A stretch of 64,000 nucleotides of DNA from Alphaproteobacteria bacterium (GTDB lineage Bacteria > Pseudomonadota > Alphaproteobacteria > Rhizobiales > Xanthobacteraceae). A model generated the notes under the pieces. The model was given only the letters and a program-made list of their open reading frames with translations. It was not told the DNA's origin and made no database searches. The stretch lies in NCBI GenBank assembly GCA_026400395.1, contig JAPLPD010000160.1, positions 1,427 to 65,426 of the forward strand. Reading direction: 5' to 3'. This document shows, one piece after another, positions 2,428 through 64,000 of the stretch (position 1 is its first letter; each line of letters begins with the position of its first letter). Both the position numbers and the translations under genes were made by a program.

Positions 2428-3219
2428 CTATCCTTTGGCCATCCGTACCATGCCCCAGCGCTGCACGGTGGCCTTTTCGATCGAACCGAACACCAGCCGC
2501 TCGAACGCAAACCCGATGCCGCCGATCACGATCAGCGAGGCGATCATCAGCGGCGCGTTGAGGAACTCCTTGGCGTCGAAGATCACCCAGCCAAGGCCGA
2601 AGTCGGACGCGGCGAGGAATTCGGCGCCGATCACCGCGATCCAGGCGCGCAGGAACGCCTGCCGCAGGCCGGTGATGATGAACGGCGAGGCGCCCGGCAC
2701 GATCACCTTCCAGAACATCGCGCGTTCGCCCGCGCCCATGGCGCCGGCGGCGCGGAGCCACATCGGATTGACCGCGCGGCCGCCGGACCAGGTGTTGAGC
2801 AGCATCGGAAACAGCGCCGCGTAGAACACGATCAGGATCGCCACCGTGTTGCCGAGCCCGAACCACAGGATGAAAATCGGCACCCAGGCGAGCGACGGGA
2901 TCGGCATCAGCGCGCTGACCAGCGGCATGAAGAAATGCTCGATCGGCTTCCACCGCGCCATCAGGATGCCGAGCGGCAGGCCGATGCCGACCGCCAGCGC
3001 CATGCCCACCAGCACGCGGTAGAGGGTGCTGGCCGCGTGCACGATCATGGTGCCGTCGAGCAGCGAGCCGATCAGCGCGGTCCAGACCTTGGGCAAGGTC
3101 GGCATCAGCGCCGGCGGGAAATAGGCGGTGCGCGCGACCGCCTCGTAGAGCGCCGCGGCCACCGCGATGGTGACGGCGGCACGCAGGGTCGAGCGGGTGC
3201 GGGCGGATACGGCGGTCAT
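2428..3219 (-). CDS. ABC transporter permease, NitT/TauC/SsuC family
   Basis: PIPSLAW..LWFGLG, EAA-like loop AAGAMGA, VIVPGASPFIITGLR; start overlaps the upstream permease stop. Confidence 0.9.
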   Translation of the reverse strand: MTAVSARTRSTLRAAVTIAVAAALYEAVARTAYFPPALMPTLPKVWTALIGSLLDGTMIVHAASTLYRVLVGMALAVGIGLPLGILMARWKPIEHFFMPLVSALMPIPSLAWVPIFILWFGLGNTVAILIVFYAALFPMLLNTWSGGRAVNPMWLRAAGAMGAGERAMFWKVIVPGASPFIITGLRQAFLRAWIAVIGAEFLAASDFGLGWVIFDAKEFLNAPLMIASLIVIGGIGFAFERLVFGSIEKATVQRWGMVRMAKG

Positions 3220-4043
3220 GTCATCATGCCCCAGCGCATCACGGTGTATTCTTCGATCTTCTGGAACACGAGCTTTTCGAGCGCCAGCCCGATCACGCCG
3301 ATCACGAACACCCCGGCCAGCATCACGTCGGTGTTCAGGAACTCGCGGGCGCCGAAGATCATCCAGCCGAGCCCCCATGGCACCGCGGCCAGCATCTCGA
3401 TGCCGACCAGGATGCGCCACGCTTGCGCCAGCCCGAGCCGCAATCCGGTGAGGATGTAGGGCAAGGCGCCCGGCACGATCACCTTGACGAACAGGCGGCG
3501 GTCGTCGGCGCCCATCGCCTGCGCCGAACGCACCCAGATTTCCTTCACCGCCGTCACGCCGGTCCAGGTGTTGAAGATGATCGGGAACGCCGAGACGAAA
3601 GCGACCAGCAGCACGGCGGATTTGTTGCCGAGGCCGAACCACAACAGGAACAACGGCGCGTAGGCGAGGCCGGGGATCGGCGCGCCGATCGAAACCAGCG
3701 GCAGCGCGATGTCCTCGAACCGGCGCGAGCGTCCCATCAGAATGCCGAGGGTGACGCCGACCACCGCGGCCAGCGCAAATCCGGCGAGCAGTCGGAGCAC
3801 GGTATCGAACACATGATGCGGCAGAATGCCGTTCATGGTCAGGAACACGAACGATTCGGCGACCGTCACCAGCGAAGGGAACAGCTTCGGCGGAAACGTG
3901 CCGCTGCGCGCCACGATCTCCCAGATCGAGAACACGACGATGAACGGGAAGGTGTTGCGCCAGATCACCCGCCACCGCGAATCCTCCGGCGCGTGCGCCG
4001 CCCGCGCCGCCAGAACGCCGGTCTCGGTGGTGATGTCGGTCAT
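3216..4043 (-). CDS. ABC transporter permease, NitT/TauC/SsuC family
   Basis: PIPGLAYAPLFLLWFGLG, SAQAMGA, VPGALPYILTGLRLG; start MTDITTE at 4043. Confidence 0.9.
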   Translation of the reverse strand: MTDITTETGVLAARAAHAPEDSRWRVIWRNTFPFIVVFSIWEIVARSGTFPPKLFPSLVTVAESFVFLTMNGILPHHVFDTVLRLLAGFALAAVVGVTLGILMGRSRRFEDIALPLVSIGAPIPGLAYAPLFLLWFGLGNKSAVLLVAFVSAFPIIFNTWTGVTAVKEIWVRSAQAMGADDRRLFVKVIVPGALPYILTGLRLGLAQAWRILVGIEMLAAVPWGLGWMIFGAREFLNTDVMLAGVFVIGVIGLALEKLVFQKIEEYTVMRWGMMT

Positions 4044-50430: not shown

Positions 50431-52647
50431 CTATTTTGACTCCAGCGCAAACGCTCCATCCCAGTCGTCCGGCGGCGGAGTGACTTGGAAATGGCGGACC
50501 CGTTTGGAATAGATCTCGTAAAGAGTTCTGAAGCTGTGCTCGCCGCCGGCCGCGAGCCCTTCTTCGATCGCCGCCAGCGCGCCTGTCCAGTTCCGGCTGC
50601 GATAATGTGAGAGCATTCTCACGTTGAGTTCGTGCCAGCGCTGGAAGCGTTCCGAGTTGATCATGTCTTCGCGGCCGACGATGGAATAGACGACCTCCGG
50701 TTCCTTCTTGCCCTTGACTGCGATGAAGTCCAGTTCCAGCAGCGCGAATTTGTCCTTCGCAACGCTTGCCGTGCGTGAGCCGATGATGATCGGCAGCCCG
50801 TAGGATTTGCATTGGCCTTCCAGGCGGGAGGCGAGATTGACGCTGTCGCCCAGCACCGAATAGTCGAAGCGCAAATCGGAGCCCATGTTGCCGACCACGC
50901 AACGGCCGGTGTTGATGCCGACGCCGATGTTGATCGGCAGAAACAGCGAGCCGTTGACCTTCGACGCCTCCTCGCGCTCGCGATTGAGCCGGTCGACCCG
51001 TTCGAGCATGTCGAGCGCGGCTTCGCAGGCGTTGAGTTCGTGGATCGGGTCGGAGAGCGGCGCGTTCCAGAACGCCATGATGGCGTCGCCCATGTATTTA
51101 TCGATGGTGCCCTTGCGGTCGATGATGGCGTTGGTCAGCGGGGTCAGGAAGCTGTTCATCAGCGCCGTCAGGCCCTGTGGGTCGTCCTTGTAGACCTCCG
51201 AGATGGTGGTGAAGCCGCGGACATCGCTGAACATGATCGTCATGTTGCGCGCCTCGCCGCCAAGCACGAGCTTCTCCGGCGACTGCGCGAGCTGCTCGAC
51301 CAGGGCGGGCGAGAGATATTGTCCGAACGCCGAACGAATCTGGCGCCGCTGCGCCTGCTCCTTGACGAAATTGGTGAACACCAGCGTGACGTAGATCAGC
51401 AGGCTCGACAGCAGCGGAAAGGTGAAATCCAGCAGCAGCTTTAGTTCGGAGAAAAAGTACCACGAGCCGCCGACCAGTAGCGCGATCATCAGGGCGCCGA
51501 ACAGCAGCAGATAGACGGGGCCAAGGATCGGCGCGATGATGATGATGAGGGCGCCCAGCACAGCGGCCGCGCCGAGTTCGGCCGCGACCGCGTAGTTCGG
51601 CTGCGACAGCACCGATTTGCTGAGAATGCTTTCCAGAACCTGCGCTTGGATTTCGACGCCAGGCATGGTGGGATCGTTCGGCGTCGTCTTCAGATCGAGC
51701 AGGCCCGCGGCCGACGTGCCGACCAGCACCAGTCGCTGCGCTACGCGGTCGGCGGGGACGCGCCCCTCAATCAGGTCGAGCGCCGAAATGTAGCGCGCCT
51801 TGTCGTGCGGCGCGAAATGCACCCAGAGCTGGGCGTTGCGGTCGGTCGGCATCTCGAACCCGGGAAGCGCCACGCTGGTGACCCCGGCTCCGTCCATCCG
51901 GATCAGGATGGTGCTGGCCCCGGTCGCCACCCGCAACATCTCGAACGACAGCGACGGCATGATGTTGCCCTGCGCCTGCATGGCCATCGGAATACGGCGC
52001 ACGATGCCGTCGCGCTCGGTGCGGATGCTGAACAGGCCGCGGCCGGACGCGGCGTGTTCCAGGACCGGCACGTTGCGCAGCAGGCCGGGGAAGCTGAACA
52101 GAAATGCCTTCGGATCGCCGCCGCGGGCCGCCACGCCGCCGATCGGCGGCTGGCCTTCGGTCTGCGGCACCGGTGTCGGCAGTCCGGTTACGCCGAGCAC
52201 CACGCGCGACCGCTTGAGGGCATCCGCCATGATTTGGTCGTTGCTGGGAAGCGCGCGCAGCTTGTTGCGCGTTTCCTCGTCAAGGTCGCGATAGACGTCC
52301 GCCGCGAGCGCCGGAGACAGCCGGTCGGGTTCGGCAAAAATCACGTCGAAGCCGATGGCGGCGGCGCCCAGCTCGGTCAGGCGCGTGATCATTTCGGCGA
52401 TGCGGGTGCGGGGCCACGGAAACTGCCCGAGTTTGCGCAGGCTTTGCTCGTCGATGTCGACGATAACCACCGGCCGCTGCGTGGCGACGCGCGGCTGGAT
52501 GACCTGGAAAATATCGAAAGCTCGCAGGCGAAGTTCTTCAAGCGGGCCGGGATCGGAGACGCGCATGAACAAGAGGGCAAGCAGCAGCACGACGCACAAG
52601 GCGCGGGCGGATGTGAGCCACCGCTTCAGATTATTGAGCCATTTCAT
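50431..52647 (-). CDS. CHASE2-domain class III adenylate cyclase
   Basis: VDIDEQSL..GQFPWPR, three TM helices, FSDVRGFT, DKYMGDA, DYSVLGDSVNLASRLE (Lys/Asp pair of ATP-specific enzymes). Confidence 0.92.
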   Translation of the reverse strand: MKWLNNLKRWLTSARALCVVLLLALLFMRVSDPGPLEELRLRAFDIFQVIQPRVATQRPVVIVDIDEQSLRKLGQFPWPRTRIAEMITRLTELGAAAIGFDVIFAEPDRLSPALAADVYRDLDEETRNKLRALPSNDQIMADALKRSRVVLGVTGLPTPVPQTEGQPPIGGVAARGGDPKAFLFSFPGLLRNVPVLEHAASGRGLFSIRTERDGIVRRIPMAMQAQGNIMPSLSFEMLRVATGASTILIRMDGAGVTSVALPGFEMPTDRNAQLWVHFAPHDKARYISALDLIEGRVPADRVAQRLVLVGTSAAGLLDLKTTPNDPTMPGVEIQAQVLESILSKSVLSQPNYAVAAELGAAAVLGALIIIIAPILGPVYLLLFGALMIALLVGGSWYFFSELKLLLDFTFPLLSSLLIYVTLVFTNFVKEQAQRRQIRSAFGQYLSPALVEQLAQSPEKLVLGGEARNMTIMFSDVRGFTTISEVYKDDPQGLTALMNSFLTPLTNAIIDRKGTIDKYMGDAIMAFWNAPLSDPIHELNACEAALDMLERVDRLNREREEASKVNGSLFLPINIGVGINTGRCVVGNMGSDLRFDYSVLGDSVNLASRLEGQCKSYGLPIIIGSRTASVAKDKFALLELDFIAVKGKKEPEVVYSIVGREDMINSERFQRWHELNVRMLSHYRSRNWTGALAAIEEGLAAGGEHSFRTLYEIYSKRVRHFQVTPPPDDWDGAFALESK

Positions 52648-52692
52648 AATGCACCGCCTCGAACGCACGCCTGCGGGCGTGCCCGTCCCCCG

Positions 52693-54018
52693 TCACTTCT
52701 CCCGGAACGTCCGCATCAGTTGATCATGGAGCGGCTTGATAAAATAGGAAATCATCGTCCGGTCCCCGGTCTGAACGAACGCCTCGACCGGCATCCCCGG
52801 TACCATACGGAGTTCGCCGAGCTTGGCCACTTCGTCGGCCGGCATGGCGATCCGGATTGTGTAGAAGGTCTGCCCGGTGCGCTGGTCGGTGGAGGCGTCG
52901 GCGGAGATGCGGGTGACAGTTCCGTAGATTTCCGGGGTGGTGCGCTGGTTGAAGGCTGACAGGCGCAGCAGCGCTAGCTGTCCCTGCCGCACCTGGTCGA
53001 TATCCTGCGGATTCACCTTGGCCTCCACCGTCAGGTTATCGGCGTCGGGGACGATCATCATGATGGCGTCGCCGGCGGTGATGACGCCGCCGACCGTGTG
53101 CACGTTGGACTGGAACACCATGCCATCCTGCGGCGAGCGGATTTCGATGCGTTTGAGCTGGTCTTCGGCGGTGATCTTGCGCTCGACGAACTCGCCGATC
53201 TTGCCGTCGATCTCGCGGGTTTCCTTGGCCACCTCGCTGCTCAGATCGCGGTCGATCTGGATGATCTGCAACTCGGTCTCGGAAATCTTGCCGGCGACCT
53301 GAGCGGTTTGCGCGATCAACTGCGCGGCTTCGCCCTCCAGTCGCACCGCGGCGCGCTCAAGCTCGGTCAGCCGCGTCAGCGGAACGAGCTTCTGCTTCCA
53401 CAGGTCGTAGACGCCTTCCTTTTCGCGGTCGATCAGCTTGGTTTCTTTTTCCTTGGACTCGCGCTGGGCCTTGAGGCCGCGCACCTCTTCGTTGAGCTGT
53501 TCGATCCGCTGCCGGAGTTGTGCCTTCTGGCCGGTGCGCGCCGAGCTGCGCAACTCGAACAACTTACGCTCGCCGTCGACGATCGGCGCGATGTCGGGAT
53601 CGCTGGCGCGGGCCAGAAGGTCGGCTGGAAACTTGACCAGGCCGAGTCCGTCGCGCTCGCTCTCAAGGCGCGCCTTTCGCGCGTTTAATTCATCCAGACC
53701 CTTGGTGACGATGGCAAGGTTGGCGCGGGTGACCGTATCGTCGAGGCGCACCACGATGTCGCCCTGCTTGACGCGGTCGCCGTCGCGCACGCGAAGCTCG
53801 CCGACGATGCCGCCGGTCGGGTGCTGGACCTTCTTCACGTTACTGTCGACCACGACCGAGCCTTGGGCGATCAGCGCCCCGGACAGCGTCATGGTGCCGG
53901 CCCAGCCGCCGACGCCGCCGGCCAATACGATGACGATCGCGAGCCCCGCCAGGGTGTGCCGGCTGATCGATTGCCGGGTGTTCCAAGGGCGCGCCGGGGT
54001 GGGGAGTTGGGGGTTCAT
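52693..54018 (-). CDS. HlyD/PrtE-family type I secretion adaptor
   Basis: KKVQHPTGG, VRDGDRV, IRSPQDG, GMPVEAFVQTG.RT.ISY. Confidence 0.93.
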   Translation of the reverse strand: MNPQLPTPARPWNTRQSISRHTLAGLAIVIVLAGGVGGWAGTMTLSGALIAQGSVVVDSNVKKVQHPTGGIVGELRVRDGDRVKQGDIVVRLDDTVTRANLAIVTKGLDELNARKARLESERDGLGLVKFPADLLARASDPDIAPIVDGERKLFELRSSARTGQKAQLRQRIEQLNEEVRGLKAQRESKEKETKLIDREKEGVYDLWKQKLVPLTRLTELERAAVRLEGEAAQLIAQTAQVAGKISETELQIIQIDRDLSSEVAKETREIDGKIGEFVERKITAEDQLKRIEIRSPQDGMVFQSNVHTVGGVITAGDAIMMIVPDADNLTVEAKVNPQDIDQVRQGQLALLRLSAFNQRTTPEIYGTVTRISADASTDQRTGQTFYTIRIAMPADEVAKLGELRMVPGMPVEAFVQTGDRTMISYFIKPLHDQLMRTFREK

Positions 54019-54028
54019 GACGGGCCCC

Positions 54029-55795
54029 TCATGACTTGACCGCTCCCGCTTCCGGAACCAACTTGAGCGAGCGCGATGCCGCCGAGGCGCCTTCGCGCTG
54101 CTGTAGCACGCGCGCGAGTACCTCGTCCTTCGCGCCGAACGCCTGGGCGCGTCCGCCGCTCATCATCAGCAGCATATCGACGCAAGCGATCGCACTCGGC
54201 CGGTGTGCGACCACGACCGCTATGCCGCCGCGGGCACGGACGCTCATGATGGCGCGGCTCAGCGCCTCATCGCCCTCCGAGTCCAGGTTTGAATTGGGCT
54301 CATCCAGCACGACCAGAAACGGTTCGCCGTAAAGCGCGCGCGCGAGCGCCACGCGTTGCGCCTGTCCGGCGGACAGCGCGGTGCCGCTTTCGCCGACCTG
54401 CGTTTCGTAGCCATCGGGCAGGCCGACGATCAGGTCATGCACGCCCGCCGCGGTGGCCGCCGCGATCACCGCCTTGGGATCGAGCGGCTCGGAAAAGCGG
54501 CCGATGTTTTGCGCCACCGTTCCGGCCAGCAGTTCGACGTCCTGCGGCAGATAGCCGATGTGCCTGCCGAGCGAATCCGGCGACCACTGGTCGAGCGCGG
54601 CGCCATCGAGACGGATTCGGCCGCGCGCCGGTTTCCATACGCCGACCAGCATCCGCGCCAGCGAACTCTTGCCGGAGCCGCTTGGGCCGATGATGCCGAG
54701 CCCGTTGCCGGCCTGCAGCGTAATGCTGACGTCCTGCACGACAGCCTTTTCGCTGCCGGGCGGCATGACCGCGGCGCTCTCGACCACCACGTTGCGCGAC
54801 GGCGGTTGCAACGGCATCGGCGGGGGTAGCGATGGCAACAGGCCGAGGAGGTCGGTGAGGCGCCTCCAGCCCTGGCGCGCGCCGACGAAGCCGCGCCAGT
54901 TGGCGATCGCCAGATCAACCGGCGCCAGCGCCCGCGCGCTCAGGATCGAGCCGGCGATGATGATGCCCGCCGTCGCCTGCTGATAGATCACGAGATAGGC
55001 GCCGACCGCGAGCACGCCCGACTGCAGCATCATGCGAAGCACCTTGGCCGCCGATCCGAAGCCGCCGGCGACATCGCTCGCCCGCTGCTGGCTCGCCAAA
55101 TACTGGGTGTTGGCTGTGCCCCATTTCGCAGCAATGCGGCTGGTCATCCCCATCGCCGTCAGCACCTCGGCGTTGCGGCGGCTGGTTTCGGCGAGCGAAT
55201 TGCGGGCCATCGCGAACTGGGTCGCGGCCCGTGTCGGCTCCCGGGTCATGGTTTCGGTCAGCATGGTGATGATGCCGAGAACGATGGCTCCAAACAGCGC
55301 GGCCAGTCCGATGTAGGGATGGAACAAAAAGCAGATGATGAGATAGATCGGCAGCCAGGGCAGATCGAACATCGCGTTTGGGCCGGCGCCGGACAGGAAG
55401 GACCGAACGCTGTCGAGATCCCGCATCGGCTGCAGTCCGTCATTGCGATTGCCGAGCTTCAACGGCAGCCGCACGATCGTTTCATAGACCCGCCCGCTCA
55501 GCGCTTCATCGAGTCGCATGCCGATGCGCACGAGGATGCGACCGCGGATGAAATCGAGCAGGCCCTGCGCCGCATAGAGACCGGTCGCCAGAATCACCAG
55601 CCCGATCAGCGTGGGAATGCTGCGGCTCGGCAGCACGCGGTCGTAGACTTCGAGCATGAAGATGGCGCCGGTGAGCATCAGGATGTTGCTCATCCCGCTC
55701 ATCAGGCCGATCGAAATGAAGGCCCCGCGGCAAGCGGCGAGCGCGTTCGCGAGCTCGGAGCGTTGCTGGTTGGGCCGCCGAACGGGTTGCCGCAT
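54029..55795 (-). CDS. PrtD/AprD-family type I secretion ABC ATPase/permease
   Basis: YDRVLPSRS, GPSGSGKS, GYLPQD, LSAGQAQR, LDEPNSNLD; no C39 domain. Confidence 0.93.
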   Translation of the reverse strand: MRQPVRRPNQQRSELANALAACRGAFISIGLMSGMSNILMLTGAIFMLEVYDRVLPSRSIPTLIGLVILATGLYAAQGLLDFIRGRILVRIGMRLDEALSGRVYETIVRLPLKLGNRNDGLQPMRDLDSVRSFLSGAGPNAMFDLPWLPIYLIICFLFHPYIGLAALFGAIVLGIITMLTETMTREPTRAATQFAMARNSLAETSRRNAEVLTAMGMTSRIAAKWGTANTQYLASQQRASDVAGGFGSAAKVLRMMLQSGVLAVGAYLVIYQQATAGIIIAGSILSARALAPVDLAIANWRGFVGARQGWRRLTDLLGLLPSLPPPMPLQPPSRNVVVESAAVMPPGSEKAVVQDVSITLQAGNGLGIIGPSGSGKSSLARMLVGVWKPARGRIRLDGAALDQWSPDSLGRHIGYLPQDVELLAGTVAQNIGRFSEPLDPKAVIAAATAAGVHDLIVGLPDGYETQVGESGTALSAGQAQRVALARALYGEPFLVVLDEPNSNLDSEGDEALSRAIMSVRARGGIAVVVAHRPSAIACVDMLLMMSGGRAQAFGAKDEVLARVLQQREGASAASRSLKLVPEAGAVKS

Positions 55796-56238
55796 CGACG
55801 ATGATCCTTCGCGACGACATCAACGATTTGTCGCGCCGCCATCGAAACCATATTACCAGCAGTTGCAACTCTTAACGTGAATTAACCATAAGAATATAAG
55901 GCATTGGAAACAAGCCTTTTTTTAACGGCACGGATATTCCCCCACTGTTTGTTCCCGCCGACGAAACCAAAGCCGGGTTCGGTCGTTAATGAGTGTGACG
56001 GCAAGTTGGAAGGATTGGGGCTTCAAATGGATAGGTTCGACCAGTTTTTTAGCGCCGAGGCTTTGCGTTACGATCGGAATGCGGCCGACTGGCTAAGCTG
56101 TCACGCCGCAAGGCCAAGGAGCTCCGGCGCCCGGGCGTCGTCATCGCTCCGACGTGGGGTGATAGTCTGGCAGTCATTCTTGGATCTCTTTTTCAGCAGC
56201 AGCCAGCCCAGCCCATTCCGCTCAGGCACCGCCGTTAG

Positions 56239-57693
56239 CTAGCGTCCGTCCGGGGTTCGGACGCCGACCCATGCGTCTCGGATCTGGTGGTAATGCACCT
56301 GCGGATCGTAGGTCGGCACGCTGAGGCCGAGCACCTGCGGCGACAGTCGTCCGGTGGCGGCAAGCAATCCGTAGGAATTCACCAGCCGGTCGCGCTGCGC
56401 CACCACGAGCGCGATCCGCGCGTTGACCAGTTCCTGCTGGGCGTTGAGCACGTCGAGGGTGGTGCGCTGGCCGAGGCGGGCCTCCTCGCGCACGCCGTTC
56501 AGCGCGGCTTCGGCCGCCTTCACCTGGTTGCGGGTCGACTCGATGGAGCGCTTGGCGGCTTCGAGCTGCGCCCACGATTGCTGAACGCCGAGCCGCGCCT
56601 GATCGCGCGCGACGCTGAGTTCGAGTTGCTTCTGGCCTTGAATTTCCTTGGCCTGACGGATCGCGGCGTATTCGGCGCCGCCCTGATAGAGCGGCGCCGA
56701 ATATTGCACGGTGCCGGCGGCGGTGAAGGACTGCTGCTGGTTCAGCGCGGTCTCGTAGTTCTTCTGCACCGAGCCCTGCAGCGACAGCGTCGGCTGCAGC
56801 GCGCCCTCGGCGACCTTGACCTGATGCAGGGCGATATCGACGTTGTGCTGGGCGGCGGAGACGGCGGCGTTCTGCGCGATGCCGGCGGCCATCGCGGCGG
56901 CCAGCGTGTTCGGCGTGAAGCGGTCGACCGGCGCGGCCGGCGAAAGCTTGCCCGGATCGAGGCCGATCACCTGCCGGTAGGCGGCGCGGGCGCTGGCGTA
57001 GTTGGCCACCGCCGTGGACAACTGGGTGCGGCCGACGTTGAGGCGGGCCTCCGACTGCGAGACGTCGGTGGCGGTGACGTTGCCGCTCTCCAGCCGCGCC
57101 CGGGTCTGCCGCAACTGCTCGGTCAGCACGTCGATGTTCGAGCGCTGCAATTCGAGGATGCCGCCCTCGCGCAACAGGTTCATGTAGGCGGTGGCGGCGT
57201 TGAGCAGCACGGTCGCTTCCAGCCCGCGCAAGGTCTCGCGGGCGGCCAGCACCTGGCTTTCGGCGACGCGGGTGCGGTTGACCTGGCTTTCGGCGACGCG
57301 GGTGCGGTTGGCGGTCTGGAAGCCGTTGAGCAGGGTCTGCGTCACCGTCGCGCCGACGCCGCGCGGGTTGTTGACGCCGCTCTGGGTGAAGAACACCGGC
57401 GGCGCGTTGAGCGGCGTGGTCGAGCCGACCTCGCGAATCGTGGTCGATAGCGACTGCATGCCGATGTTGGCGGTGGCCACCGCGCGCGGCCGATAGCCGG
57501 CGAGGGCGGTCGGCACGCCTTCGTCGGTGGCGCGCACAAACGCCCGCTGCGCATTCAATTGCGGATTGTTGACGTAGGCGTAGCCGAGGGCCGATTCCAG
57601 CGTGTCGGCCGCCGCCGGCCCGGACAGCAGACAACACAGCGCAGCAACGGCCGTGCGCCTGTCCGTCCACTTACCCACGCGCTCGGATTTCAT
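56239..57693 (-). CDS. TolC-family outer-membrane channel (with a 10-aa tandem duplication)
   Basis: AY.NNPQL.AQR, G..T.TDV.Q...R, G.RTTLDVLNAQQEL. Confidence 0.9.
   Translation of the reverse strand: MKSERVGKWTDRRTAVAALCCLLSGPAAADTLESALGYAYVNNPQLNAQRAFVRATDEGVPTALAGYRPRAVATANIGMQSLSTTIREVGSTTPLNAPPVFFTQSGVNNPRGVGATVTQTLLNGFQTANRTRVAESQVNRTRVAESQVLAARETLRGLEATVLLNAATAYMNLLREGGILELQRSNIDVLTEQLRQTRARLESGNVTATDVSQSEARLNVGRTQLSTAVANYASARAAYRQVIGLDPGKLSPAAPVDRFTPNTLAAAMAAGIAQNAAVSAAQHNVDIALHQVKVAEGALQPTLSLQGSVQKNYETALNQQQSFTAAGTVQYSAPLYQGGAEYAAIRQAKEIQGQKQLELSVARDQARLGVQQSWAQLEAAKRSIESTRNQVKAAEAALNGVREEARLGQRTTLDVLNAQQELVNARIALVVAQRDRLVNSYGLLAATGRLSPQVLGLSVPTYDPQVHYHQIRDAWVGVRTPDGR
57251..57310. 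repeat. Perfect 30-bp tandem duplication inside the TolC gene
   Basis: ACCTGGCTTTCGGCGACGCGGGTGCGGTTG x2, encoding NRTRVAESQV x2. Confidence 0.95.
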
Positions 57694-57875
57694 CGACCTC
57701 TCGCAGCCGCACTCAACAACCGCCACCATCCCCTTGAGTCAGAGCTGGCAGACCCCCTTCGACGTTCTGCCTCGAAGGAACGACATTGCCGAATCTGAAC
57801 TATCGAGGGATCTCGCCACGCCAATACCGATGCTCAGCGGATCCCAAAACTTTACTTGGCCGCGGCGAGCGAAAG

Positions 57876-59291
57876 TTAGCGCGGACCGTCCGGCGGCCGT
57901 GGCGGCGCGCGCTCTGGCGCTGGCGCCGGTCCCGCAAAAGCAGGCCCCGCCGGGGGTGCACCCGGCGGGCGCGGCGGCGGCTCGCCTGCGGCGGCGCCCG
58001 GCGGCTGCGGCTCGGGGGCCGATCCCGAGCCCACCGTCTTGGAAATCAAATCCTGCAACTCGGTCCAGGTCCAAGAGCGGGAAACGCCGGCTGCTGCTGT
58101 ATTGTTTGCCGACGCGCCGGGCGGGGCGTCGTGGGCGGCCTGCGGGCCATTGGTCGGCGTGCGCGGCACCGCCGTCGGCGAGGGGCGTTCGGATGGTCCG
58201 GGCAGATTGCTGGCGGGGGTCCGCTCCAGCATCGGCAGGCTGGCGCCGGCGGGCCGCTGCCGTGCCGCCTCGCTGTTGTCGGGCACCGTGGTGCCGGCCG
58301 GCCCCGCCGCGGCGGGCGCCGGATTGGGCTGCAACGGCGTATCGACGTTGCCCAGGATGACCGGCAGGCCATCCTTGCCGCTGCCGATGATGACGATCTT
58401 GGCGTTCGGCGACTGCGCGAGTTGCAAGGTCGCTTCGATGCCGCGCCAGCGCACGTAGGAATCGGAAATGCCCTGCGCCACCGTCTGCTGGAAGTCGCGG
58501 ATGCCGTTTGCCTCGATTTGCTTGCGTTCGGATTCCTTCTTCTCGCGTTCGACGCGGAAGCCGTACTCCTGCACGAAATAGTACTGCTCGATCTTGCGGT
58601 TGATCGCCGCGTTCACCGCCGCGGGCAATTCCAGCCCGAGCACCAGCGTGTCGTAGATGATCAGCAACTCCTGCAGCGAAATCTTGTAATGTTCGCCGTA
58701 CTCGCTTTCGAGTTCGTTCCGCTGCATCGTGCTCTGGCCCAGCATGGCCTCGGTGTGGGTGCGGATCTTCTTCTGGATTTCCTGGCGCTTGGTCGAATAG
58801 ATCTCCTCGGCGGTGTATTCGGCGAAAATTTCCCGCGCGCGGTTGCCGATCTCGGGGCTGAGCATTCGCTTGATGTAGTCCGGTCCGATGGTCTGGTGCA
58901 GCTGCGGCACCGCGTCGTGCTTCAGCCGGAACCGGATGTCGATCGTCGCGGTCAGGTTCACGCCGTCCTTGGAGATGGCGTTGTAGGTGTCATCGTGGGT
59001 CTGCAGGCGCAGGTCGTACAGGAACAGCTTGTCCCACGGCAGCAGCACGCGCATGCCTTCGTCTTTCAACATGCGCGGATCGAGCTGGGTGCCGCCGCGA
59101 AACCGCTTCCAGAGGATCCCGACATGGCCGGTCGGGACGGTGACGATCACGTTCGGAGCGATCAGGAAGCTCACCAGCGTGGCGACCATCAGATAGATGA
59201 TGATGACCGGCAGGCTGTGCTCGACGAACCGCCACCACCGGTAACGCTTCGGCGGCGGGTTCTCATCCAGCGATTCAGGATGCGGTTTCAT
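57876..59291 (-). CDS. SPFH/prohibitin-family membrane protein with a Pro/Ala-rich tail
   Basis: N-terminal TM; VPTGHVGILW, EG....PW, SKDG, EEIYS..R..I, coiled coil ERKQIEA.GI; start overlaps the exporter stop (TGATG). Confidence 0.85.
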   Translation of the reverse strand: MKPHPESLDENPPPKRYRWWRFVEHSLPVIIIYLMVATLVSFLIAPNVIVTVPTGHVGILWKRFRGGTQLDPRMLKDEGMRVLLPWDKLFLYDLRLQTHDDTYNAISKDGVNLTATIDIRFRLKHDAVPQLHQTIGPDYIKRMLSPEIGNRAREIFAEYTAEEIYSTKRQEIQKKIRTHTEAMLGQSTMQRNELESEYGEHYKISLQELLIIYDTLVLGLELPAAVNAAINRKIEQYYFVQEYGFRVEREKKESERKQIEANGIRDFQQTVAQGISDSYVRWRGIEATLQLAQSPNAKIVIIGSGKDGLPVILGNVDTPLQPNPAPAAAGPAGTTVPDNSEAARQRPAGASLPMLERTPASNLPGPSERPSPTAVPRTPTNGPQAAHDAPPGASANNTAAAGVSRSWTWTELQDLISKTVGSGSAPEPQPPGAAAGEPPPRPPGAPPAGPAFAGPAPAPERAPPRPPDGPR

Positions 59292-60931
59292 CAGCCGGTC
59301 TCCACCGAACTTAACTCAGTGAAACGCCCCTCGTCCATGCGCAGCCGGCGGATCGGAATGTCCATCTCGTCGATGTAACGATCGTCGTGCGAGATGGCCA
59401 CCACGGTCACGCCCGCGCGATACAGCGCCGGCAGGAACTCGAAGTAGAACTTGCGGCGGAATTCCGGGTCCTGGTCGGCGGCCCATTCGTCCAGCATCAG
59501 CACCGGGCGTTTTTCAAGTTGCGCCACGATCAGCGCTAGCCGGCGGCGCTGGCCGCTCGACAGGTCGGTGGTGCGAAACTCGCCGTGCGTCAGGCGGGTC
59601 TTTTCCTTCAGCTTGTATTCCGTCAGCATCGCTTCGAGCTCGGCCGGGTCCGGATCGTCGATTCCGTAAAGCCGTTGGAACAGGTGGAAGTCGGGAAAGA
59701 TCGCCGTGATCAGGCTGCGGTACTGCTCGAACCTCTCGCCCTCGACCGGCGTGCCATCGAGCAGTAGTTCGCCAGCGGAAGGACGGTAAAAGCCGGCGAG
59801 GATCTTCATGAACGTCGATTTGCCGGAGCCGTTGCCGCCGGTCAGCATGACCATGTCGCCGGAATTCAGCGTGAAGTTGAACGGGCCGACACGGAACACG
59901 GTATCGGCCGACTTGCCCGGATAGTGGAATTCGACGTCCCGCACCTCGATCTTGCTGAACTTCTTTTGCGGCTCGATCGACTCTTCCGAGAGGCTGGTGA
60001 TGCCGGCCAGCTTGACTTCGAGTTGTGCGAGACGGTCGGCGGCGGCGTTGGCGGCGGCGATAATCGGGATCGACTGCACCAGGCCCGAGCATGCGCCGAC
60101 GATGAACACGAGCGCGGTCACCGCCTTGGTGATCGAGCCCGCCTGGATCGCCGAGGAGAACAGCGGCACGACGAACGCCACGGAGCCGAGCAGGATGTAC
60201 AGCGACGTCTGCAGCAGCACCATGCGGCGATAGGTTTCACTCTGGGCCCGAATCTTGATGTTGGCGGCGGTGCGCGAAACTTCGACGACGTGGTCATAGA
60301 GGGCGTCGCTGCGTGCGCGGTTGAGGCGCACCTCCTTGAAGCCGTCGAGCACGTCGCTCAAACGGTCGTACAGGCGGTTTTCCCACTGACCGGCTTCCCG
60401 CATCTCTGCCTGATGCTGCTTGGTCTTGGAGTGGAAGATGGCCGCGCCGGTGCCGACGATGACCACACTCAGCACGAACGCCGTGAACGAAAGGTAAGCC
60501 ACATAAGCTGTCACCAGCGTGATCAGCAGCGCGCCTTGCACAGCGAACGCCAGCATGTTGCTGGCCTGCGTCAGGATCGCGGTATCGCCCGTGATGGCGG
60601 AGACGATCTCGGCGCGGCCGATTGTCTCAAGCGGCAGCAATTCGGCGCGCCGCACGTAGTCCATCAGCCGCACCCGCAGCTTATGAATGATGGCGCCTAT
60701 CTCGGCGGTGGTGGTGATCAGGATGAAGTGCTGCGCTTGCACGAACAGCAGCAGCGCGACGACGAAAAATCCGGCCGCCCACAGGCTGATCTCGCCCTTG
60801 TCGGCGGCGCCCGCGCCGGCGTTGATCGCGCCGATCAGTGCCGTGGTGCTGACCCCGCCCATGGCGGATACGAACACCAGCCGGCCAATCGAGCTGACCA
60901 TTTCGCGGCGAACAAGCTGGAGAAAGGACAT
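59291..60931 (-). CDS. Cyclic peptide export ABC transporter (SyrD/PvdE/YojI family)
   Basis: TMD plus NBD; GGNGSGKST, LSSGQRRRLAL, family hallmark LDEWAADQDPEFRRKFY. Confidence 0.92.
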   Translation of the reverse strand: MSFLQLVRREMVSSIGRLVFVSAMGGVSTTALIGAINAGAGAADKGEISLWAAGFFVVALLLFVQAQHFILITTTAEIGAIIHKLRVRLMDYVRRAELLPLETIGRAEIVSAITGDTAILTQASNMLAFAVQGALLITLVTAYVAYLSFTAFVLSVVIVGTGAAIFHSKTKQHQAEMREAGQWENRLYDRLSDVLDGFKEVRLNRARSDALYDHVVEVSRTAANIKIRAQSETYRRMVLLQTSLYILLGSVAFVVPLFSSAIQAGSITKAVTALVFIVGACSGLVQSIPIIAAANAAADRLAQLEVKLAGITSLSEESIEPQKKFSKIEVRDVEFHYPGKSADTVFRVGPFNFTLNSGDMVMLTGGNGSGKSTFMKILAGFYRPSAGELLLDGTPVEGERFEQYRSLITAIFPDFHLFQRLYGIDDPDPAELEAMLTEYKLKEKTRLTHGEFRTTDLSSGQRRRLALIVAQLEKRPVLMLDEWAADQDPEFRRKFYFEFLPALYRAGVTVVAISHDDRYIDEMDIPIRRLRMDEGRFTELSSVETG

Positions 60932-61008: not shown

Positions 61009-61245
61009 CTAGCTGCTCCGTGCGCGGCGCAGCAATTCAGTTTGCCGCGCCAGCTCGGCGCGGCGGGCCATCTCGGCCCGGCGCGAGGGGCCGGTGATCA
61101 GCAGCATCAGCAACCCGAGCACCGGGGTGATAGCGAGCGACAACAGAAAAGTGCCGGTGAAGCCCATCCGCCGCTGGCTACCGCAGAGCCCGACGAGGAT
61201 CGCGAACACAACATAGGCCGCCAGGACAGCAAGCGGTAACACCAT
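61009..61245 (-). CDS. Small two-TM hypothetical protein
   Basis: TM-GSQRRMGFTGTFLLS-TM with a basic tail; co-oriented with the exporter. Confidence 0.6.
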   Translation of the reverse strand: MVLPLAVLAAYVVFAILVGLCGSQRRMGFTGTFLLSLAITPVLGLLMLLITGPSRRAEMARRAELARQTELLRRARSS

Positions 61246-61344: not shown

Positions 61345-61896
61345 TCAGTTCGGCCCGGGCGCCGGGGTGGTCGGAGCATCAGACGGCGTTCCGCGCCACT
61401 TCGCCTGCTGCGCCTTGAACTTCGCCTGCTGCACCTTGATGAATTCGCGATAGTCCGGCGGATCGAAATCCAGAAGCGTGCCGCCCGAGGCGAAATGCTT
61501 CATGAAAACCTTGCCGATCACGTAGGTGGCTCCAGCGGAGTACACCGGCATGGTCAGCGCGCCGATTGCCGATCCAATCCCTGGAATGCCCTTGATCAGG
61601 CTGCCGAAGGTCATCGCCGTCGTCGTCGCGGTGCTCGCCGGAATGAGCGAGCCTGCGAGGCCCGCGATCACCGACTTGCCGCGGTTGTCGTTGAACGGCA
61701 CCCCGTAGATTTCCGAAAGCCGCCGCAGCATCTGGATCTGTACGCCGCCGACGGCGACCACGTCGATCAGTGGCACCGGAATAAGGCCGGCCGCGCCCGA
61801 CCAGAGTGAAAACCGGTCGACCAGCTGGGACGCGGCTTCTTCGCGCTCCGATTCGGTCATCGGTGTGGTGGCGGCAGTAAAGGATTCGGTTGTCAT
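61345..61896 (-). CDS. DUF697 (YcjF-like) family protein
   Basis: GAAGLIP.P..D......Q..ML..L..IYG.PF, K.IPGIGS..G, ATYVIGKVF; imperfect 21-bp tandem repeat near the 3' end (QQAK x2). Confidence 0.75.
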   Translation of the reverse strand: MTTESFTAATTPMTESEREEAASQLVDRFSLWSGAAGLIPVPLIDVVAVGGVQIQMLRRLSEIYGVPFNDNRGKSVIAGLAGSLIPASTATTTAMTFGSLIKGIPGIGSAIGALTMPVYSAGATYVIGKVFMKHFASGGTLLDFDPPDYREFIKVQQAKFKAQQAKWRGTPSDAPTTPAPGPN

Positions 61897-62265
61897 GATT
61901 CGGATTCCCCTCAGGTCGCCAGTCGCCGCTCCGCCGGGGTCGATCGCACGATCGAAGGTGCGAAAGTCCGCGCCAGCCCTAGAGTCATAACAGATCGTGT
62001 CAGCGGGTGCCAAGCCCTTGTGCGGTTGTGCGTAACGCTTCCGGGACACCGGGCGGACCGCCCGGTTTGATTGTGACGGAATCACCGCGCGGACACACGG
62101 TGGCCGGCGCGGCAAAGAGCGGTCAAAACCGTCGCGGCGCGCTATGATCCGCCGGCACGTGCCATGGGCGGGGGGGGGTATCGTGCGTCGTGTTCTCGTT
62201 TTGCCACATCAGCCTCCGGAGGCGACGACCCCATCGGCGCAAAATTTCAACAAGGAATTGCAGGA

Positions 62266-62697
62266 ATGACGAAATGCATTTCGATGGCCGGCCTGGCGCT
62301 GATCTGCGGCACGGGCGTGTTGCTTGCCCAGGAGCCGGCCCCGAAGTCGACCACGGCCGGCGTGTTCACCGACGAACAGGCCAAGCGAGGCGCCGCCGCT
62401 TACAGCGCCAACTGCGCCGCCTGCCACGGGGCGGAGCTTCGCAGTTCCGATCGGGAAATCCCTCATCTGACCGAGAAATCGTTCAAATTCGGCTGGATCG
62501 GCAAAACCATCGCGGAGAGGTTTGAGTTCATTCGCGAAACCATGCCGCCTAAGGTGGAGAAGAAGCTTCCCGATCAAGTCTACCTGGACATCGTGACGTA
62601 TATTCTGCGGTTCAATAAAATCCCGTCGGGCGATCGGCCGCTGAAGGCGGATGTCGAAATCCTGAAGCAGATTTTGATCGAGGCGCCGCCGGACTAG
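62266..62697 (+). CDS. Periplasmic mono-heme cytochrome c
   Basis: Signal peptide; GVFTDEQA.RG, NCAACHG, axial Met in TMPP. Confidence 0.88.
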   Translation: MTKCISMAGLALICGTGVLLAQEPAPKSTTAGVFTDEQAKRGAAAYSANCAACHGAELRSSDREIPHLTEKSFKFGWIGKTIAERFEFIRETMPPKVEKKLPDQVYLDIVTYILRFNKIPSGDRPLKADVEILKQILIEAPPD

Positions 62698-62885: not shown

Positions 62886-63539
62886 ATGAACGCAACACAT
62901 TCGCCCTTTGCGTCCCTCGCGCGCGCCGTCGATGCCGTGTCCATCCCGGGCATCGTTGTCGAGCACCGGCTGATCGCCGATGGAGACGAGCGGGCCCTGC
63001 TGCCGGAGGAGATGCCGGCGTTCGCGGCGAGCGTGACGAAGGTGCGGCGCGCCAGCGGCGCGGCGCGCATCGTCGCGCGTCAGTTGTTGGCGCGCTTCGG
63101 GCAGCCGCCCCAGGCGATCCCGCGAGGCACGGCTGGGATGCCGCTTTGGCCGACCGGTATCGTCGGTTCGATGGCGCACGACGACACGGTCGCGGTCGCG
63201 GCCATGGCGGCGCGGCGGGATTTTCTCAGCGTTGGCGTCGATGTGGAGCCGGCTGAGCCACTGGAGCCGGGCCTGCTCGATATCGTCGCCACCGCGAACG
63301 AGCGGCAGTGGGCGAAGGACGACCCGCTGGCGGGACGTCTGCTGTTTGCGATCAAGGAGGCGATCTACAAGGCGGTCTATCCGCTCGACCGCATCTTCCT
63401 GGATCACCATGACGTCGAGGTGAACCTGACCGATGGGACCGCCGTGGTCCGGCAGGGGAGGGTGGTCCGGTTCCGCCATTGCGCTGCAACGCACATGGTG
63501 GTCCTGGCCTTCATTCCGGTCGCCGAGGTTCCCCCTTGA
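62886..63539 (+). CDS. 4'-phosphopantetheinyl transferase (EntD/Sfp type)
   Basis: G.PLWP.GIVGSMAH, VGVDVE, LFAIKEAIYKA. Confidence 0.9.
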   Translation: MNATHSPFASLARAVDAVSIPGIVVEHRLIADGDERALLPEEMPAFAASVTKVRRASGAARIVARQLLARFGQPPQAIPRGTAGMPLWPTGIVGSMAHDDTVAVAAMAARRDFLSVGVDVEPAEPLEPGLLDIVATANERQWAKDDPLAGRLLFAIKEAIYKAVYPLDRIFLDHHDVEVNLTDGTAVVRQGRVVRFRHCAATHMVVLAFIPVAEVPP

Positions 63540-63827
63540 GTTTTCCCAATAGGCTGAAACGGCAAAAATATGTGGTAACTCAATCGGTTGGCCAAAATTC
63601 AGACAAATTCTGCATGAACAGTGCAACGCGTGTTATTTAATTGCGTAAACGGCCAATTGTTGTTTTTAGTCATAGGACTAGCGGGATGGTAAACGACCCT
63701 TTCTGCCGCTTTGGCCGGGGCTCCGGCTGAGGTAGTTTAAGGGCGCCGGTGAGGGAATTAAGGTGTGGGCCCCTCGCACCGTGGCTTTCGGTGAGCAGGG
63801 ATCGTTTCGTCAGTGTCTGATCCGAGT

Positions 63828-64000
63828 ATGGGTTCCGGGGAGTTGGAGGTCGGTCGGCCGCGCGCGCCGGCCGGCGAAGCGCGTGCGTTGTCGAGCCCGC
63901 AACTCGGCATCTGGTTCGCACAAAAACTCGACCCGGCGAGCCCCGCCTACAACATCGGCGAATACTTCGAGATCGGCGGCTCGGTCGTGCTGCCGCTGTT
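63828..64000 (+). CDS. Non-ribosomal peptide synthetase, N-terminal condensation domain (3'-truncated by window)
   Basis: Manual translation from ATG 63828: ...LSSPQLGIWFAQKLDPASPAYNIGEYFEI..., a C1-motif pattern; directly follows the PPTase; not in the ORF track. Confidence 0.8.
   Translation, partial: MGSGELEVGRPRAPAGEARALSSPQLGIWFAQKLDPASPAYNIGEYFEIGGSVVLPL

Follow-up and report, generated by a model that had tools for sequence, protein, structure and literature searches.

An NRPS gene of an uncultured freshwater alphaproteobacterium begins with a predicted starter condensation domain that most likely adds a short acyl cap

The NRPS gene and its neighbourhood

The stretch of DNA analysed here (the window, 64,000 nucleotides) is C315:1427-65426, on one contig of a 369-contig, 5.31-Mb, 99%-complete genome (MAG) whose host is an uncultured freshwater Xanthobacteraceae-like alphaproteobacterium. 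At its edge lies the 5' end of an NRPS gene (63813..64000, plus strand), covering the N-terminus of what is predicted to be a starter condensation (Cs) domain. An ATG at 63828-63830 opens a frame reading MGSGELEVGRPRAPAGEARALSSPQLGIWFAQKLDPASPAYNIGEYFEIGGSVVLPL to the window edge, and both the letters and the reading are as the preliminary description of this DNA gave them. The frame does not stop shortly past the window; it stays open for 8,900 nt (2,966 codons), up to the end of contig C315 some 8.7-8.9 kb further on. The Pfam domains in it are Condensation (three), AMP-binding (three, of which two have AMP-binding_C) and PP-binding (two), in the order Cs-A-T-C-A-T-C-A(partial). The HHxxxDG motif and the A and T domains that had been expected beyond the window are all present: HHLVLDG stands at residue 149 in the first C domain, HHIAGDG at residues 1193 and 2275, and carrier serines (GGHSL) at residues 1007 and 2089. 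The C315 frame is a modular NRPS, with repeated C-A-T modules carrying HHxxxDG motifs and GGxS carrier serines.

The gene has two candidate start codons. A TGA stop stands in frame at 63792, and the earliest possible start is GTG 63813, five codons 5' of ATG 63828. When the leaders of relatives are aligned, GTG TCN GAT is conserved in position in 8 of 34 and ATG 63828 in none, and GTG 63813 is at least as good a start. Public gene calls are divided, with one NCBI record beginning at GTG 63813 and five other, independent assemblies at ATG 63828; the two starts differ by five residues, all ahead of the conserved domain. The locus had been described as an un-called NRPS start, and only the second half of that description stands, since each public assembly containing the gene has a call for it. 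A search of metatranscriptomes found no run with the NRPS gene.

The intergenic leader or promoter region ahead of the gene (63540..63812, plus strand) has a GC content of 50%, falling to 42% in 63540-63700, against 65% for the window. A sigma-70 promoter scan of this leader found no consensus. Its end (63791-63830) is kept at the nucleotide level in relatives, as (A/T)GG(A/G)TC(G/A)T, 7 nt and GTG TCT GAT C. Many relatives also have an extra in-frame GTG AAC seven codons upstream, and the counterpart in the window, GTG 63791, is out of frame through a 1-nt difference. This motif could be a ribosome-binding site plus alternative starts, or a regulatory element.

An Sfp/EntD-type 4'-phosphopantetheinyl transferase (PPTase) gene (62886..63539, plus strand; PF17837 and PF01648) ends 273-288 nt upstream of the NRPS start, and 14 of 30 alphaproteobacterial loci have a PPTase homologue close to the Cs-NRPS gene. 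It is preceded by a gene for a small c-type cytochrome identified by Pfam scan (62164..62697, plus strand), which is probably outside the pathway, since the relatives' loci searched hold no homologue. Divergent from the NRPS gene, on the minus strand, lie genes for a DUF697 membrane protein (61345..62115; shorter, at 183 aa, in public calls), a 78-aa ORF with no Pfam match that is called in all public assemblies (61009..61245), a SyrD/PvdE-type "cyclic peptide export" ABC transporter of 546 aa (59291..60931; TIGR01194, 327 bits against a cut-off of 286.2) and an SPFH/Band-7 protein recognised by Pfam (57876..59291), whose start overlaps the stop of the transporter gene. Homologues of the DUF697, ABC and SPFH proteins occur at 24, 26 and 21 of the 30 alphaproteobacterial loci, respectively, SPFH being conserved with the exporter, and in about 20 of the 30 these three genes adjoin one another immediately upstream of the Cs-NRPS gene. 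The PPTase and this conserved cassette belong to the cluster, and the ABC transporter is likely to be the product exporter. Like SyrD (syringomycin) and PvdE (pyoverdine), it passes the TIGR01194 model and adjoins an NRPS gene, but it differs from them in sharing an operon with the SPFH protein, the 78-aa ORF and the DUF697 protein, a combination that we do not know from any characterised cluster. The cassette links two proteins of unknown role with peptide export.

Beyond the SPFH gene lies a TolC-family outer-membrane channel gene (56239..57729, minus strand; TIGR01844). Its product may be a partner of the exporter or of the neighbouring PrtD/HlyD type I system; its membership of the cluster is uncertain because no homologue was found in any of the relatives' loci searched, while the HlyD and PrtD-type ABC genes recur only in the closest relative (L084). 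Together, the PrtD-type ABC, HlyD and TolC genes make up a type I secretion set, and after it comes a gene for a CHASE2 adenylate cyclase (50431-57729 in all). Housekeeping genes occupy the remainder of the window: ATP synthase a subunit, cytochrome oxidase I, threonine synthase, M16 peptidase and TldD.

Extent of the assembly line

Upstream of the NRPS gene there are only the TGA at 63792, the 273-nt AT-rich spacer and the PPTase gene, with no A or T domain ahead, and this genome has just one first-in-line starter C domain. When the gene's own domains were used as tblastn queries, NRPS sequence elsewhere in the genome was found only on contig C249 (5,952 nt). The gene is the true first gene of the genome's only NRPS assembly line. 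The suggestion that it might be an internal gene of a longer line is therefore rejected as to the gene's position; the line itself does far exceed the window, as judged from the C249 tail and from unitig depths.

Read in reverse, C249 encodes a partial A domain, a T domain, a thioesterase (PF00975) as terminal release domain, a stop and then a 77-aa MbtH-like protein (PF03621, 93 bits). We infer that this tail belongs to the same NRPS gene as C315, because the two have equal depth and because a 495-nt unitig touches the ends of both contigs. The A domain of C249 and the one cut at the end of C315 are only 57% identical over their overlap, and hence at least one T-C stretch must be missing between the contigs.

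The depth evidence comes from unitigs of four freshwater metagenomes. Over its first 7.2 kb the locus is single-copy, at about 6-7x in X1 and 19-24x in X3, and one X3 unitig spans 4.5 kb upstream, through the PPTase gene and into the first A domain (A1); from the export genes to the first C domain (C1), coverage is single-copy and contiguous in independent metagenomes. At the contig ends the depth rises. The last 104 nt of C315 fall on a unitig at 4.7-8 times the unique depth, and the NRPS-side 117 nt of C249 on one at 2.8-3.6 times, whose depth in X1 (23.1) is the sum of three branches (7.05 + 9.19 + 7.8), the 495-nt unitig being one of them. These raised depths point to two or more further modules, probably about five, that are partly identical in sequence and collapsed in the gap. 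All public assemblies break at the same two places. Look-ups with the exact MbtH and PPTase proteins, which occur on 16 and 13 public contigs, respectively, gave none that crosses the gap. The genome is a MAG in 369 contigs, and additional genes, a ligase or carrier for instance, could lie hidden in the gap within the NRPS.

A complete genome of the same genus (G010) holds a homologue as a single ORF of 10,376 aa (L015-L017, G010:C1:2638363-2669491). It starts with a 60%-identical Cs domain, contains eight A domains and includes three repeats of about 8 kb that are nearly identical. Long, repetitive assembly lines are typical of the group to which the window gene belongs.

Past the MbtH gene, C249 (L099) carries a second DUF697 gene (189 aa, 2945-3515) and a gene for a ParA/CbiA-like ATPase (222 aa, 2280-2948), both on the minus strand relative to the NRPS tail and convergent to the MbtH gene; the arrangement is seen also at L103 (2439-3673). 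The NRPS thus has DUF697 genes on both sides. Further along (313-2160) is a gene for a membrane protein of 554-616 aa with a weak 2Fe-2S ferredoxin match and a C-terminus that looks cyclase-like by eye, the second unusual cyclase-type gene to adjoin the cluster.

The starter domain and its cap

Compared by phmmer with all PDB chains, C1 is closest to the starter domain of RzmA (RzmA-Cs; 7C1H, 3.4e-103, 349 bits), followed by CdaPS1-C1 (4e-59), ObiF1 (1e-53) and EntF (9e-52). Elongation, dual or E-type C domains (TycC, SrfA-C, LgrA, fuscachelin and others) score 1e-20 or worse. This ranking indicates a starter-type C1 and not one of LCL or DCL type. The protein's own C2 and C3 are ordinary elongation domains, which directly follow T domains with no E domains between, and they served as outgroup and root for our trees. 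Judged by sequence, C1 groups with characterised Cs domains and apart from the LCL, DCL, dual, E and Cy types. The N-terminal starter-type condensation domain of the preliminary description is thus upheld, both by the PDB ranking and by trees rooted on the protein's own LCL domains, and an elongation-type classification was not obtained. A starter-type C1 implies a peptide with a capped N-terminus.

The starter group covers both lipoinitiating domains (RzmA, CdaPS1) and DHB-capping domains (EntF, DhbF, MxcG). Acyl and aryl are not told apart by raw similarity: C1 has 44% identity and 317 bits with RzmA-Cs, and with DhbF-like domains the figures are 44-50% and 346-395 bits. The DhbF-like domains thus match RzmA's raw similarity to C1, which would fit an aryl-capped (DHB/salicylate) or otherwise iron-chelating siderophore synthetase of the DhbF/MxcG/EntF type. 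The synthetases of bacillibactin, enterobactin and myxochelin belong to the same starter superclade, share the N-terminal motif Q-x-G-I-W-F-A-Q and are 31-50% identical; DhbF also has Thr in its second module, as predicted here, and the thioesterase and MbtH partner are present in the window line as well. Among NCBIfam models the best for C1 is MxcG (439 bits), with EntF next. These matches were dropped as a hint of DHB capping after a control in which RzmA-Cs, for which acyl-CoA use is proven, scored 404 bits on the same MxcG model; with near-equal scores, the MxcG match of C1 is no evidence for DHB.

Genomic linkage argues against a siderophore. A pattern scan of 185,579 species genomes yielded 79 loci. 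At the 42 DhbF-like loci (Bacillota, Streptomyces, others), homologues of entA/C/E/B lie directly upstream, most loci carrying all four and every one of the 42 a DhbE-type ligase, whereas such homologues were found at none of the 30 alphaproteobacterial MAG loci, most of which had 10 kb of upstream flank. A tblastn search of the whole 99%-complete genome with E. coli EntC/E/B/A returned generic paralogues only: the best EntE match is 26.5% identical, with no DhbE-type ligase; EntB matches cover the isochorismatase part only, without the carrier domain (ArCP); there is a single EntC paralogue at 27% identity; and the EntA matches are generic dehydrogenases. Thus this genome has no linked synthesis of DHB or salicylate and neither the aryl-AMP ligase nor the aryl carrier protein that would go with it, and no TonB-dependent receptor or iron transporter was seen among the ORFs scanned in about 13 kb upstream of the NRPS gene. 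The Pfam Lys/Orn N-oxygenase model gave only partial matches of 19-37 bits in the genome and revealed no obvious hydroxylase; it is uninformative beyond that, because 12 of 14 control genomes give matches to it as well. The amphiphilic siderophore offered as one possible product is accordingly unlikely, given the lack of DHB/salicylate genes, of a credible Lys/Orn N-hydroxylase and of a TonB-dependent receptor in that interval. The window line also differs from DhbF, EntF and MxcG in having many more modules.

Phylogeny points in the same direction. In a maximum-likelihood tree (LG+C20), the window C1 falls inside a 99/95 clade of about 35 alphaproteobacterial MAG domains, RzmA-Cs is sister to this clade (97/91) and every ent-linked domain lies outside. 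The AU test rejected a grouping of the alphaproteobacterial domains with the Bacillota DhbF clade (p 0.002), which tells against the aryl reading, but did not reject a tree compatible with that reading, in which RzmA and CdaPS1 lie outside a group of the alphaproteobacterial and all ent-linked domains (p 0.11). RzmA, moreover, has a long branch and an odd composition. The tree favours the acyl reading but does not prove it.

The donor pocket was compared in the RzmA numbering of PMC7804268, via sequence alignment to solved Cs structures. The window C1 has A136, Y138, M148, W149 and S287. Among the 35 alphaproteobacterial domains, A136, Y138, M148 and S287 are each present in 30-35 and W149 in 25. 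The 42 ent-linked domains have, almost without exception, Q136, I/V138, F/Y148, S149 and M287, and this aryl-capping signature is absent from the window C1, whose Y138 and S287 are common to RzmA and whose M148 and S287 are common to CdaPS1. At residue 36, a Glu in C1, it agrees with the aryl set. Taken together, the linkage, the search of the genome itself, the phylogeny and the donor pocket argue with moderate strength that the peptide is N-acylated and not aryl-capped, which we consider likely; an iron-chelating product of the DhbF type is, in contrast, quite improbable. The earlier expectation of an acylated peptide from the N-terminal C domain holds at that moderate strength, through the absence of ent genes, the tree and the pocket residues. 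The comparison of 42 ent-linked with 35 ent-free domains also provides a simple signature (136, 138, 148, 149 and 287) separating aryl- from acyl-capping starters, and these five positions could improve the automatic classification of starter C domains.

Silent N-terminal C domains occur in some NRPSs. C1 might similarly be a structural relic, in which case the released peptide would have no N-terminal cap or would receive one from an unrelated enzyme, and the lack of a linked donor-supplying gene would suit this. We regard it as highly unlikely: HHLVLDG is intact, all but one of the 35 alphaproteobacterial relatives retain the catalytic His, and C1 is conserved at 47-67% identity over about 35 MAG lineages with its pocket, which indicates selection on function.

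How long an N-acyl cap might be can be approached from RzmA-Cs, the best solved-structure match to C1 (44% identity over the whole domain). RzmA, the rhizomide synthetase of Paraburkholderia rhizoxinica, is also multimodular, with an N-terminal Cs domain and no linked acyl-activating genes, and its Cs domain uses acyl-CoA directly (PMC7804268). The two domains have Y138, P271, S287, D350 and Y378 in common. They differ at the gate (Arg in RzmA, Met in C1) and at positions 136 (Q, A), 36 (Q, E) and 149 (Y, W); the hosts differ at phylum level, the exporter sets differ, and the window peptide is predicted to be longer and of different composition. Residue 148 gates the acyl pocket, with Arg in RzmA giving C2, Met in CdaPS1 C6 and Ala in HolA C8 (PMC7804268). 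With each shortening of the gate, in the order R, M, L, V, A, G, the cap grows a step longer; Y138A is required as well for chains of C10 and above, and long chains in RzmA needed both R148G and Y138A (PMC7804268). With Met at the gate, Tyr138 kept and Trp149, C1 is suggested by analogy to add a short acyl group, roughly C2-C6, and not a long lipid tail. This step to chain length is the weakest of our argument, as it carries a mutational rule over from a domain that is 44% identical.

CdaPS1 C1, from the calcium-dependent antibiotic synthetase of Streptomyces coelicolor (4JN3/5DU9), is a further guide. It is also a starter domain with a Met gate (M165), has Ser at the acceptor-side position 309/287, as the window domain does, and belongs to the same broad ent-free clade. 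It is only 35% identical to C1, and its donor is 2,3-epoxyhexanoyl-ACP supplied by dedicated fab-like genes, of which there are none among the ORFs scanned around the window NRPS.

A true long-chain lipopeptide, a biosurfactant or antibiotic, would require that the Cs domain load a C10-C16, possibly 3-hydroxy, acyl chain, taken from CoA or from an ACP onto which a fatty acyl-AMP ligase (FAAL) encoded elsewhere has loaded it. An N-terminal Cs domain with a SyrD-type exporter is the classic layout of cyclic lipopeptide clusters, the genome has several generic acyl-CoA/AMP ligases, and the gate is Gly or Ala in ent-free Streptomyces representatives of the broad clade shared with C1, which means that this clade can accommodate longer chains. 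Against this, Met occupies the gate both in the window C1 and in 30 of 35 alphaproteobacterial relatives, Tyr138 is invariant and Trp149 common; RzmA accepted long chains only when both its gate and Tyr138 were replaced; and the ORFs scanned to the left and right of the NRPS contain no FAAL or ACP gene. We consider a long chain unlikely. The lipopeptide, such as a surfactant, first proposed for this cluster is not supported as stated, the pocket combining a Met gate like that of CdaPS1 (C6) with a Tyr138 like that of RzmA (C2); given the short cap suggested, a lipopeptide surfactant is not the default expectation.

Our results thus favour, as the probable reading, the first gene of a large NRPS whose starter C domain most likely adds a short acyl cap from acyl-CoA.

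Adenylation codes and the proposed product

The specificity-conferring (Stachelhaus) residues of the A domains were read through alignment to EntF, a procedure that reproduces the known EntF code, DVWHFSLVDK. The codes are DPESAGLIDK for A1, DFWNVGMVHK for A2, DPENVGLVD- for A3 and DAESAGLIDK for the last A domain, on C249. A2 agrees with the Thr signature DFWNIGMV (PMC3207962) at 7 of 8 positions, and residue 2 is predicted to be Thr. A1, A3 and the last A domain share E239/D331; a literature search on the A-domain strings found only DAESIGSV, the Lys signature of BacB, which is the nearest citable one and agrees at 5 of 8 positions. It is plausible, at low confidence, that these three domains select residues with a basic or polar long side chain. 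The first and last A domains of the G010 line carry the same unusual codes as the window line (DAESAGLIDK). DMENLGLINK, which may be the coelichelin hOrn code, was given no weight in these assignments. An MxcG-like Lys assignment for A1, drawn from a whole-module match, was dropped because A1 alone scores higher on EntF than on MxcG.

On the short-acyl reading, the assembly line might work as follows. The PPTase would prime the T domains of the NRPS, and A1, aided by the MbtH-like protein, would load the first amino acid onto T1. The Cs domain would take an acyl thioester, most likely an acyl-CoA of primary metabolism as RzmA-Cs does, since the ORFs scanned on either side include no FAAL or ACP gene, and would N-acylate the aminoacyl-S-T1. 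LCL-type C domains, with no E domains, would then extend the chain through module 3, residue 2 being Thr and residues 1, 3 and the last coming from A domains with the E239/D331 pocket, to which the closest cited signature is that for Lys. The modules predicted in the unassembled gap would add further residues. The thioesterase would free the peptide, possibly as a ring, and the SyrD-like ABC transporter, with the SPFH and DUF697 proteins as partners, would export it.

Starter-C NRPSs are well understood, and the enzyme logic proposed here is not new; the window NRPS is of a familiar type, though itself uncharacterised. The clade to which it belongs has no known product and spans about 35 uncultured MAG lineages of Xanthobacteraceae, Rhodoplanes and Hyphomicrobiales. 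Lipopeptide clusters from Xanthobacteraceae were also looked for in the literature, with no relevant result. It is possible, though we hold this only tentatively and would not call it probable, that the gene heads an undescribed, widespread family of giant, internally repetitive Xanthobacteraceae NRPSs making short-acyl peptides rich in Lys/Orn-like residues, a family marked by the A136/Y138/M148/W149 Cs pocket and the DUF697/SyrD-like ABC/SPFH export cassette. If this were so, the product would have a polymyxin-like design (acyl-basic-Thr-basic-...-basic) in an uncultured freshwater and soil lineage, and might offer new bioactivity.

Near-identical copies of the NRPS (L002:7600-9153 and the whole locus), with up to 96% of sampled 31-mers, are present in many metagenomes. 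These are freshwater, river, lake, soil and marine-plankton samples from at least ten studies, the window organism being near-identical across the freshwater and river ones; such recurrence indicates that the organism is widespread.
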